Part shown: piece after piece, positions 21,796-22,885 of the stretch
Position numbering within the stretch: position 1 is the first letter of the stretch
Layout: each line of letters starts with the position of its first letter
Position numbers and translations under genes: made by a program
Notes under the pieces: generated by a model
The model's database searches: none
The model's input: only the letters and a program-made list of their open reading frames with translations
Told to the model about the DNA's origin: nothing
Virus record (IMG/VR): IMGVR_UViG_3300040810_000833
Span: 64,001 to 96,055 of that record
Origin: a virus
Lineage: Duplodnaviria > Heunggongvirae > Uroviricota > Caudoviricetes
Direction: 5' to 3' (one strand)
DNA: 32,055 nucleotides

Positions 21796-21823
21796 ATTCT
21801 ACAGCCAGTATCGTCATTGTCAA
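21796..21823 (-). promoter_or_regulatory. Sigma70-type promoter for RNA ligase gene
   Basis: TTGACA-N16-TAGAAT. Confidence 0.75.
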
Positions 21824-21848: not shown

Positions 21849-21879
21849 AAAAAAGCCCGTTTGGATAACAAGGGCGGGC
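21849..21879 (-). terminator. Terminator ending the tmRNA coding piece
   Basis: GCCCG...CGGGC stem followed by T6. Confidence 0.75.
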
Positions 21880-22017
21880 AACCCCCCGTGACTACTCACG
21901 CAGCCATTGCGACATTTCTGCCTGCATTTATTTTTGATTAGATTTTTTAGCTGGCCCTTCTAATCACCCAGCACATGCAGTCGTTACCTACGTCACCTGT
22001 CAATTCCATTCACCCCC
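21855..22017 (-). ncRNA. ssrA: Two-piece tmRNA, coding piece
   Basis: 5' GGGGGTGAATGGAATTGACAGG (acceptor 5' strand plus D-loop); H-type pseudoknot GCTGG/CCAGC with GATTAGA/TCTAATC; AAAAATAAAT before the resume codon; tag ORF; stop-codon hairpin CGTGA-GTAG-TCACG. Confidence 0.9.
21896..21925 (-). other. tmRNA tag reading frame AGRNVAMAA*
   Basis: GCA GGC AGA AAT GTC GCA ATG GCT GCG TGA; hydrophobic AA C-terminus of ssrA degrons. Confidence 0.85.
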
Positions 22018-22556
22018 GTTGTTTTAGTAACTGCTCGTGCGAATTCTATAACATCTTCATCTGAAAATTTATTTCGAGCAAAGTTAAACATAACAGAAAC
22101 AAATCTAACATTGTCTACAGCATACCCTTTTGAATTATCAATTCTATCAAGACTTGCTGTTTTTAATCTTAATTTGTAGTTCTTAGATTGAGTTGGAAGT
22201 TCTAATGCCCAGCCAGTAAGAGGACAAATGCCTTTTTGAGAGTCCCAGATTTCTTTCAGAGATTCTAAAGTTATAGTAATTTCTTTACCTCTTCTGTGTA
22301 GTCTCCTAAAAGTTTCTCTAAATGGTGATAGCTCGTCAGCTCTGTTTCCAGCACGCTGAGATATGTCAAAATCACTTAGGTCTCTTATTCTTTTTAAATG
22401 ACTTAGTTGCTCAGGCTGTTTACCTGAACAAGACAGTCCACAATAAAACTTATCTTTACCCAACCTTATTCTTCTGTTATATTCTCCCTTCGATTTTTCA
22501 AATTCTTTGTTACAGGTTTCGCAGACGAGGGTTACTGTTTTCATCACAATCTCCAT
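21993..22556 (-). CDS. HNH-type (His-Me finger) endonuclease-like protein in the tmRNA intervening segment
   Basis: N-terminal CxxC...YCxxxC zinc motif; QKGICPLTG, SLDRIDNSKGY..DNV, N..RN motifs typical of phage homing-endonuclease-like proteins. Confidence 0.75.
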   Translation of the reverse strand: MEIVMKTVTLVCETCNKEFEKSKGEYNRRIRLGKDKFYCGLSCSGKQPEQLSHLKRIRDLSDFDISQRAGNRADELSPFRETFRRLHRRGKEITITLESLKEIWDSQKGICPLTGWALELPTQSKNYKLRLKTASLDRIDNSKGYAVDNVRFVSVMFNFARNKFSDEDVIEFARAVTKTTGVNGIDR

Positions 22557-22629
22557 TTAAGGTAATAGTAGTTTTATATCATACCATACACCAAAAACGA
22601 TGGAGAGCGTAAGAAAAAAAAATGGAGAG

Positions 22630-22706
22630 TGGAGGTGGGGGGCAACGATCCCCCGTCCAGTCTGATTTCAATAACAACGTCTACATGTTTATCCGGCTTA
22701 CGCCAG
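22630..22706 (-). ncRNA. ssrA: Two-piece tmRNA, acceptor piece
   Basis: CTGGC-GTAA-GCCGG hairpin, AAACATGTAG, then GGAC-GGGGG-ATCGTTG-CCCCC (T arm)-CACCTCC-A; pairs with GGGGGTG at 22017-22011 giving G3.U70 Ala identity; ACATGTA pairs with TGCATGT of the coding piece. Confidence 0.9.
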
Positions 22707-22709
22707 AAA

Positions 22710-22821
22710 AGGAGGGGCTGGACTCGAACCAGCATCAGGTTCCGACTTAGGAACGTGCCTTCCTCTTGGCACTTATTGGTATACTGCGTCCAGTATTGCC
22801 CGTCTTTATCATCACCCTCCC
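22710..22821 (-). ncRNA. Non-canonical tRNA-like RNA (acceptor + T arm + three hairpins)
   Basis: GGGAGGG/CCCTCCT acceptor, GCTGG-TTCGAGT-CCAGC T arm, hairpins ATACTG/CAGTAT, GTGCC/GGCAC (8-nt loop), GTTCC/GGAAC; no canonical D arm or anticodon loop. Confidence 0.65.
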
Positions 22822-22831
22822 CTAAAACTCT

Positions 22832-22885
22832 AACAAGTGGTGGTTCACTAAGAGGTTATCTTAGCCATTATGAACGTCGCTTGTT
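22832..22885. other. Long imperfect hairpin between tRNA-like RNAs
   Basis: AACAAGTGGTG/CGTCGCTTGTT, TTCA/TGAA, CTAAGA/TCTTAG. Confidence 0.55.

Follow-up and report, generated by a model that had tools for sequence, protein, structure and literature searches.

A predicted HNH/PacI-like endonuclease gene in the spacer of a permuted phage tmRNA gene ends inside the tmRNA coding piece

Ribonuclease P (RNase P) makes the 5' ends of transfer-messenger RNAs (tmRNAs), and messages that have lost their stop codon are substrates of trans-translation. What becomes of a protein-coding gene whose stop codon lies within a tmRNA gene? The question is posed by a stretch of 32,055 nucleotides (nt), hereafter the window, that forms the final 32 kb of a 96-kb uncultured virus record of IMG/VR (IMGVR_UViG_3300040810_000833, positions 64,001 to 96,055; Caudoviricetes). 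A circularly permuted tmRNA gene in the window carries between its two pieces an open reading frame (ORF) for a predicted HNH/PacI-like endonuclease, and this ORF has no stop codon of its own and terminates 25 nt inside the tmRNA coding piece; tmRNA pieces, intervening segment, nuclease ORF, a hairpin and a -10-like box all lie on the minus strand. An earlier note on this DNA had read the arrangement as a built-in self-limiting circuit. The comparison presented here makes it rather probable that the overlap is a tolerated by-product of compaction and not a selected device.

The idea that maturation of a tRNA or tmRNA removes the stop codon of a message is not new, having been published for SegB of T4 and for smpB of Carsonella. 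For segB it was proposed that a hairpin covers the ribosome binding site (RBS) and that maturation of tRNA-Arg severs the stop codon from the last sense codon, impairing the mRNA (Brok-Volchanskaya et al., 2008; PMC2330249). The locus in the window resembles segB in that a putative free-standing homing endonuclease gene lies among stable-RNA genes, is carried on the precursor transcript of an RNA gene and has a hairpin over its Shine-Dalgarno (SD) sequence and start codon. However, SegB is a GIY-YIG enzyme with a tRNA as neighbor and is cut at the stop codon, whereas here the enzyme is HNH/PacI-like, the neighbor is a tmRNA and the cut would fall 25 nt before the stop; moreover, segB is not inside a split RNA gene and has no adjoining promoter, whereas here a conserved -10-like box is found in the hairpin loop. 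In the smpB-ssrA pair of Carsonella ruddii the coding sequence likewise enters the 5' end of the tmRNA, non-stop mRNAs are expected and the message is a substrate of the linked system, an overlap that the authors found nowhere but in Carsonella (Hudson, Lau and Williams, 2014; PMC4131195). That case concerns smpB, a reduced endosymbiont genome and a standard tmRNA, whereas here a selfish nuclease of a phage occupies the spacer of permuted tmRNAs throughout a clade.

Permuted two-piece tmRNA genes (RF04321; PMC11915505) provide the framework into which the locus fits, with acceptor piece, intervening sequence and coding piece in this order, pieces that pair to rebuild the tRNA-like domain, a pseudoknot (PK1) and a tag ending in AA. 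Unlike in the known genes, whose intervening sequences are short, 612 nt with an expressed-looking ORF intervene in the window and only PK1 is evident. The tmRNA database paper of 2025 distinguishes three gene forms, reports LAGLIDADG genes in 36 of 883 T-loop introns and lists as oddities of permuted spacers one tRNA-Ala gene and one repeat element, a protein gene being unmentioned (PMC11915505). The intron form with LAGLIDADG genes is comparable insofar as a tmRNA gene harbors a homing endonuclease gene and the tmRNA remains functional because the insert is taken out of the RNA; the window differs in that there is no self-splicing intron, the insert occupies a segment that tRNA-processing enzymes remove anyway, and the nuclease belongs to another family. 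The hairpin also has its precedent: in I-TevI, I-TevII, I-TevIII and Aeh1 MobE long transcripts of the early or middle phase carry a stable hairpin that hides SD and AUG, and the promoter is sited so that late transcripts cannot form it, such that in these systems, and in SegB, read-through transcripts are untranslatable and a promoter in the hairpin yields translatable ones (Edgell, Gibb and Belfort, 2010; PMC2988022). Here, in contrast, the upstream 'host' transcript is a tmRNA/tRNA precursor and the promoter is a candidate only. What is new is that a nuclease gene occupies the spacer of a phage tmRNA gene in permuted form, that the register varies, that the overlap could be compared with those of unrelated genes, that the cassettes share a hairpin and that an RNA contig ends at the first nucleotide of the tmRNA (G+1).

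The overlap between nuclease ORF and tmRNA

The nuclease ORF ends with ACG GGG GTG AAT GGA ATT GAC AGG TGA, the TGA lying at 21995-21993 and the five G's at 22017-22013, the first of which is G+1 of the tmRNA by acceptor pairing. Its last 25 nt (22017-21993) start with GGGGGUGAAUGGAAUUGAC, a typical tmRNA 5' end. The earlier claim that these 25 nt, stop codon included, are nt 1-25 of the coding piece therefore holds, and so does the geometry derived from it, as a transcript cut at G+1 loses its stop codon and neither a terminator nor an untranslated spacer would fit between ORF and tmRNA.

Is the tmRNA real? ARAGORN and, at its gathering score, Rfam report no tmRNA in the native sequence. At a relaxed threshold the Rfam family RF04321 (tmRNA_permuted) aligns end to end at 21896-22688(-) with 29.6 bits and an E-value of 7e-4, remaining below the gathering score of 47 because a 580-nt insert has to be accommodated in a loop. 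When the spacer is shortened in silico, ARAGORN reports a permuted tmRNA with the tag AGRNVAMAA and the 5' tRNA domain at GGGGGTG; as 3' domain it takes a different, more upstream T arm in the window and the proximal acceptor piece in the relative L005. GGGGGUG of the coding piece pairs with CACCUCC of the acceptor piece (coordinates in Table 1) to give G3:U70, the alanine identity pair, followed by A73, and this acceptor stem is the same in all relatives compared. Three near-identical IMG/VR contigs (L001-L003) with about 87% identity to the window keep the layout and have an identical T arm and acceptor, while both of their PK1 stems differ from those of the window by compensatory changes. 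Among the relatives the T stem occurs in at least five different, fully paired forms (e.g. GGGGG/CCCCC, GGGGC/GCCCC, GAGGC/GCCTC, TCGGA/TCCGA and GTGGA/TCCAC). Helix-2 pairing is seen in the Rfam alignment, with compensatory changes relative to L001 as judged by eye. A per-sequence pseudoknot search found PK1, an H-type pseudoknot of 5 + 7 base pairs, in 12 of 12 coding pieces at an equivalent position, as compared to 24 of 2400 shuffles (1%), and its stem 1 exists in six and its stem 2 in at least nine sequence variants. The tag ORF of the window reads GCA GGC AGA AAU GUC GCA AUG GCU GCG UGA; across the relatives it stays open and keeps the end ...A(L/M)AA despite non-synonymous change, the tags being AGRNVAMAA in the window, AEPSFALAA in L001-L003, and AEETLALAA and ADESLALAA, with a hydrophobic-Ala-Ala ending and a stop. 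The permuted tmRNA gene in the window is thus real.

The overlap is found in every spacer-borne homologue for which DNA could be read, since all nine distinct sequences stop inside the tmRNA. Its length is not constant: 8 nt in six (UGA at tmRNA nt 6-8; L005, L085, L086, L087, L088/L089 and L090), 25 nt in two (the window, identical with L084, and L001-L004) and 52 nt in one, which has one extra G (L091). Four more IMG/VR loci from a motif scan have the 8-nt overlap too (L197, L200, L201, L212). In addition, back-translation turns the C-termini of about 50 protein clusters (at least 50% identity) into tmRNA 5' ends, with each of the three registers represented (...NRG, ...TTGVNGIDR and ...NGGVPVSTGNTGW, each followed by the stop), so database homologues that end in ...TTGAK and similar sequences presumably overlap a tmRNA as well. 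In a tree of the family the eight spacer-borne HNH proteins that could be placed form one clade (support of 98.8 in the Shimodaira-Hasegawa-like approximate likelihood ratio test), and the other members are mostly located after the 3' end of a standard tmRNA. Judged from these sequences, the overlap in the spacer-borne clade goes back to one historical event and later frame shifts.

How much selection is needed to explain that no stop codon precedes G+1? The last conserved helix (..EFAxAV) is separated from G+1 by 3-4 codons only, and from the base composition of the ORFs the probability that such a linker has no own stop by chance is 0.71-0.78. The three frames of the tmRNA 5' end in the window reach a stop after 8, 18 and 25 nt; any ORF without an own stop consequently ends within 25 nt, and the length of 25 nt is not special. 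In the relatives' tmRNA 5' ends every frame holds a stop within 8-120 nt. Furthermore, entirely unrelated genes end in the same way. Upstream of the approximately 24 standard tmRNA genes in the motif scan, genes for PAP2 (L219, L236; also L173), ThyX (L174) and DeoC (L239) terminate on the same UGA at nt 6-8, an overlap identical to the 8-nt form of the nuclease. Two unknown genes (L176, L220) also end inside the 5' end of a standard tmRNA, the overlap being 13 nt in L220. Altogether about one standard tmRNA in six of those sampled in phage contigs has a protein gene ending inside its 5' end, which is far more common than in bacteria, where 250 same-strand overlaps with an upstream coding sequence were found among 115,660 tRNA and tmRNA genes and about 1 mRNA in 15,000 overlaps any such gene (Hudson, Lau and Williams, 2014; PMC4131195). 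Since unrelated genes overlap alike, the overlap is a common outcome of tight packing by tmRNA genes in these contigs and not specific for the nuclease.

Table 1. Features of the locus (coordinates of the window)
Feature	Position	Strand	Details
tmRNA acceptor piece	22630..22688	(-)	helix-2 3' strand, T arm, acceptor 3' strand; Rfam RF04321 alignment, T arm and acceptor identical in L001-L003, T-arm covariation
T arm in acceptor piece	stem 22654-22650 / 22642-22638	(-)	loop AUCGUUG
Acceptor 3' strand CACCUCC; discriminator A	22637-22631; 22630	(-)	CCA not encoded (A-CUC next)
Intervening segment	22018..22629	(-)	612 nt, entirely filled by nuclease cassette; 26-107 nt in HNH-less relatives
RBS-sequestering hairpin	22535..22618	(-)	anti-SD CGCUCUCCAUCG (22609-22598) pairs with SD GGAGA (22554-22550) and start-codon region
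-10-like box TGGTATGAT in hairpin loop	22578..22586	(-)	GTGTATAAT in relatives; possible internal promoter for transcripts that would be devoid of the anti-SD arm
Predicted HNH/PacI-like free-standing endonuclease ORF	21993..22544	(-)	183 residues from ATG 22544, or 187 from ATG 22556; no own stop
Overlap of ORF 3' end (G VNGIDR stop) with tmRNA nt 1-25	21993..22017	(-)	25 nt; acceptor 5' strand, D-loop analogue, start of helix 2
tmRNA coding piece	22017 to about 21849 (21849..22017)	(-)	GGGGGUG 22017-22011, helix-2 5' strand, PK1 21972-21936, resume codon, tag ORF GCA..UGA 21925-21896 ((A)AGRNVAMAA)
Hairpin and T run, 3' part of coding piece	21879-21855; 21854-21849	(-)	

The surroundings of the locus contain further elements. 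Directly upstream of the acceptor piece a second tRNA-like element (22700-22850, minus strand) has the T arm GCUGGUUCGAGUCCAGC and the acceptor-like sequences GGAGGG/CCCUCC; it is this T arm that ARAGORN picked as 3' domain in the spacer-shortened sequence. The hairpin after the tag ORF recurs in relatives with a covarying stem (GCCCG/CGGGC versus GCCAGU/ACUGGC) and a constant loop, CCUURUUAUCCAAA, which points to a function in addition to termination. A near-consensus sigma-70 promoter, TTGACA-16-TAGAAT (11/12 matches; 21796-21823, minus strand), is located between an RNA ligase gene and the terminator of the tmRNA. A BLAST comparison with deposited phages gave no match to the locus or to 20 kb of the window, and a search for relatives via the neighboring RNA ligase found none.

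The nuclease family and its insertion next to tmRNA 3' ends

The ORF probably starts at ATG 22544 (MKTVTL, 183 residues) and not at 22556, because homologues begin with MKTVTL or MSKITL. Its product has no match in Pfam but matches two PHROG endonuclease families (phrog_3322, 8e-23; another at 5e-13), and more than 190 homologues of about 180 residues exist. An AlphaFold model based on 61 homologues has a mean predicted local distance difference test score of 91.5, the last seven residues (181-187), which are encoded by the tmRNA, being disordered. In a fold search of the PDB the top match is the HNH restriction enzyme PacI (3ldy; E 1.2e-3, probability 1.0), followed by weaker matches (E 0.2-1.1) to Gme HNH, McrA, the HNH domain of Cas9, Cap5 and T4 endonuclease VII. 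The family motif ASLDRID..GY..N.R is invariant, as is N149, and N158 is nearly so. The invariant Arg138 of DRID occupies what we take to be the position of the canonical first His of the HNH motif, a residue that PacI is likewise not known to have. Going by the modelled fold, the product is likely a nuclease.

Where do members of this family reside? Among 160 retrieved loci with nuclease homologues, 108 of them unique, a tmRNA-type 3' end (T arm and NNNNUCC-A) is located at most 150 nt upstream on the same strand in 72 of the 108 (median 50 nt) but in none of 87 control windows, and in 35 of these loci ARAGORN calls a tmRNA that ends there, almost always of the standard one-piece form. Some members are instead found about 50 nt after a tRNA-Ala-UGC (L062, L066, L075-L077) or a tRNA-Ile (L072); the tRNA-Ala neighbors would fit a target in the acceptor/T-arm region of alanine type that both RNAs share. 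In two loci (L108, L119) the nuclease lies upstream of a standard tmRNA and has an own stop 11 and 15 nt before G+1, respectively. The family thus appears to behave as a free-standing homing endonuclease with its site at the tmRNA 3' end. In a permuted gene the position just past the 3' end is the intervening segment, the spacer in which the cassette sits.

That the cassette is an optional insertion is evident from 79 loci retrieved with the 5' motif that marks this lineage of tmRNAs. Permuted tmRNAs without nuclease and with spacers of 26-107 nt are among them (L241, L222, L208, L194 and others), and many of the short-spacer loci are called permuted tmRNA by ARAGORN. More precisely, HNH-less L222 and L241 have near-identical PK1/coding-piece segments to, and homologous acceptor pieces with, HNH-bearing L088 and L085, respectively, constituting a presence/absence polymorphism at a fixed site. 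In the HNH-bearing alleles the cassette starts right after A73/C74 and ends at position -1, so that the whole spacer is replaced. CCA following the discriminator is encoded in HNH-less L241, L208, L199, L206 and L198 but not in the HNH-bearing window (22627-22630), L004 and L085-L090, where A-CUU or A-AUU is found; the cassette boundary therefore lies at 74/75 and CCA must be added enzymatically. The pairing of nuclease and tmRNA was kept while the nuclease diverged to about 53% identity.

It could also be imagined that the nuclease created the permutation by recombination between a tmRNA-HNH and an HNH-tmRNA arrangement. This origin is disfavored by the existence of the HNH-less, short-spacer permuted relatives and by the fact that the spacer-borne nucleases are one clade inside a family living mostly after standard tmRNA 3' ends.

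Two observations concern other tmRNA genes of the collection. In a number of loci with standard tmRNA (L025, L028, L112-L114, L148, L094/L095, L134, L140, L012, L007, L098) a second copy of the tmRNA 3' end directly follows the stop codon of the nuclease (e.g. TAG ATTCYCGCCRCCTCCAC) and has the appearance of the original 3' fragment, displaced as in T-loop integration. In five further loci (L168, L171, L181, L233, L238) no more than 64-137 nt separate a tmRNA-type 5' end from a T arm and CACCUCCA, making them candidates for tag-less mini-tmRNAs that consist of the tRNA-like domain only, like that of mycobacteriophage DS6A.

Hairpin, RNA contigs and the fate of the nuclease message

All cassettes, whether beside standard or permuted tmRNAs, share one plan in the stretch that leads from the acceptor piece to the ORF: an element ..CAUCUCCA.., the box GTGTATAAT (TGGTATGAT in the window), GGAG and AUG. 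The ..CUCCA.. element pairs with the SD sequence and start region of the nuclease ORF. In the window the resulting hairpin has a free energy of -23 kcal/mol (z -3.95), and the same hairpin is present in 10 of 10 folded loci (window, L004, L085, L088, L090, L029, L092, L058, L006, L007) with z values of -2.9 to -9.2. Of 52 unique loci, 32 have a duplex between anti-SD and SD that is better than those of 95% of shuffles (p<=0.05). These data are folds and duplex tests of single sequences; a MAFFT/RNAalifold alignment of the hairpins in the 5' untranslated regions, whose loop lengths differ, gave no consensus. The -10-like box in the loop keeps both its position and its sequence across cassettes of types A and C. 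An extended -10 near 22579-22587 had been proposed in the earlier note; the element is indeed conserved in relatives, but lies one base off, at 22586-22578, and a sigma-70 scan of the spacer found no canonical promoter, the box being without a -35. The hairpin is a more conventional brake on the nuclease than loss of the stop codon.

Six metatranscriptome runs hold the locus, in the form of Logan contigs, which cannot prove RNA ends. Contigs bridging G+1 are present in three runs from different studies (X11, 21858-22208; X13, 21984-22697; X19, 21924-22260). Run X18, which was DNase-treated, has as its best-covered contig one of 641 nt that spans exactly 22017-22657, and none of its contigs covers the coding piece; the end of the 641-nt contig is 1 nt past the expected 22018. 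By our own estimate the chance that a contig ends within 1 nt of the predicted cut is about 0.02-0.04 (23 contig ends in 1251 nt). Stretches without RNA cover (22708-22791; the coding piece in X18) were not used as evidence. The contigs hint weakly at the presence of uncut precursors as well as of a leader severed at G+1. The X19 contig has one T fewer in the T9 run after the acceptor piece (22614), which may reflect strain variation or an assembly slip.

How could the locus have arisen and how might it work? A cassette of a homing endonuclease family that habitually sits about 50 nt past phage tmRNA 3' ends would have replaced the whole spacer of a permuted tmRNA gene. As the cassette abuts the coding piece, an ORF without an own stop would read into the tmRNA up to the first in-frame stop, 25 nt in. 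The nuclease mRNA would then be the physical 5' leader of the pre-coding piece, and therefore each RNase P cut at G22017 would leave a message without a stop that ends in ...ACA AC. Loss of the stop upon RNase P cleavage is a sound inference, and some stop-less nuclease mRNA is likely made; it would be degraded or, if loaded with ribosomes, rescued by trans-translation. The main control of expression would nevertheless be the hairpin, which would hide SD and start codon on transcripts reading through from the tmRNA/tRNA precursor, whereas the promoter-like box in its loop would yield translatable transcripts. On hairpin-bearing precursors, which should be free of ribosomes, the leader would merely be discarded. 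On internal-promoter transcripts translation and cleavage would compete, since a ribosome reaching the UGA at 21995-21993 would unwind tmRNA nt 1-40 and a cut ahead of the ribosome would strand it.

Several points weigh against regarding the overlap as a mere by-product. None of the nine distinct spacer-borne ORFs has gained an own stop, which selection for read-through predicts as well. The persistence of the pairing through so much sequence divergence argues against a transient accident. The end of the X18 contig at G+1 hints that nuclease-bearing RNA is really cleaved, such that a regulatory effect is possible. Moreover, the loop box is a promoter candidate only, and with an Arg in place of the canonical first His the activity of the nuclease is itself a prediction.

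One alternative is that the overlap is almost without consequence, because translated mRNAs would originate from the internal promoter and end at the UGA, whereas the precursors that are cut would not be translated, the two forming separate populations. Internal-promoter mRNAs would not contain the acceptor piece in cis and would therefore be poor substrates of RNase P. This would agree with a hairpin that hides SD and AUG only on transcripts beginning upstream of 22609, with the conserved box in its loop and with the contigs bridging G+1 in three runs. However, pairing with the acceptor piece could also take place in trans, the way the two pieces are joined in the mature tmRNA, and with a ribosome terminating at 21993 some interference seems unavoidable; the X18 contig, which starts at 22657, upstream of the box, is uninformative on internal-promoter transcripts. 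We regard such a neat separation as rather unlikely.

Alternatively, the overlap could be the self-limiting circuit of the earlier note, in which maturation by RNase P removes the stop and the nuclease is tagged, perhaps by the same tmRNA, and degraded, which would hold a toxic enzyme low and tie its level to tmRNA production. The retention of the overlap in nine of nine distinct relatives would be expected, the nuclease mRNA necessarily leads the coding piece and one RNA contig ends at G+1. In addition, homing endonucleases are known to be restrained at several levels, and it has been proposed that tRNA maturation removes the stop of T4 SegB (PMC2330249) and that Carsonella smpB is subject to the same feedback (PMC4131195). 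Yet the circuit is not supported in the form proposed, based on the fact that 1) the eight relatives placed in the tree count as one event; 2) 71-78% of 3-4-codon linkers would be open by chance; 3) neither length (8, 25 or 52 nt) nor sequence of the tail is conserved; 4) members beside standard tmRNAs keep their own stops, in L108 and L119 within a few codons of G+1; 5) the housekeeping-type genes for PAP2, ThyX and DeoC, with no obvious need for self-limitation, overlap alike; 6) the conserved hairpin already constitutes a brake of a known kind. Selection for such a circuit is accordingly improbable. The same low credence applies to an extended form with negative feedback and an addiction link, in which each tmRNA made from a loop-box transcript would free one stop-less nuclease mRNA whose product is tagged by that same tmRNA; if so, deletion of the cassette would cripple the tmRNA, and tmRNA production would keep the nuclease low. 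Decay of one of the two partners, leaving either a split tmRNA that no longer functions or a nuclease pseudogene that is not expressed, and with it a meaningless overlap, could be suspected from the low Rfam score, the silence of ARAGORN on the native sequence and the absent catalytic His, but is very improbable in view of the compensatory changes in the T arm and both PK1 stems, the open tag ORF with its conserved end, the ORF intact in all relatives with a confident fold and the RNA contigs covering the locus.

Consequences for phage tmRNA genes and their nucleases

One nuclease family would thus home to the 3' end of phage tmRNA genes, and the permuted RNA gene would offer such elements an intron-free safe harbor, since tRNA-processing enzymes should remove the insert. 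For annotators the locus is a warning, as tmRNAs of this kind escape ARAGORN and Rfam. The set of overlapping genes, nuclease or not, constitutes natural constructs on the competition between RNase P processing and translation. If the stop codon is really removed, the locus would be a natural case of a selfish nuclease gene throttled by the maturation of its RNA-gene home, and a ribosome-rescue RNA would act on the message from which it was cut.

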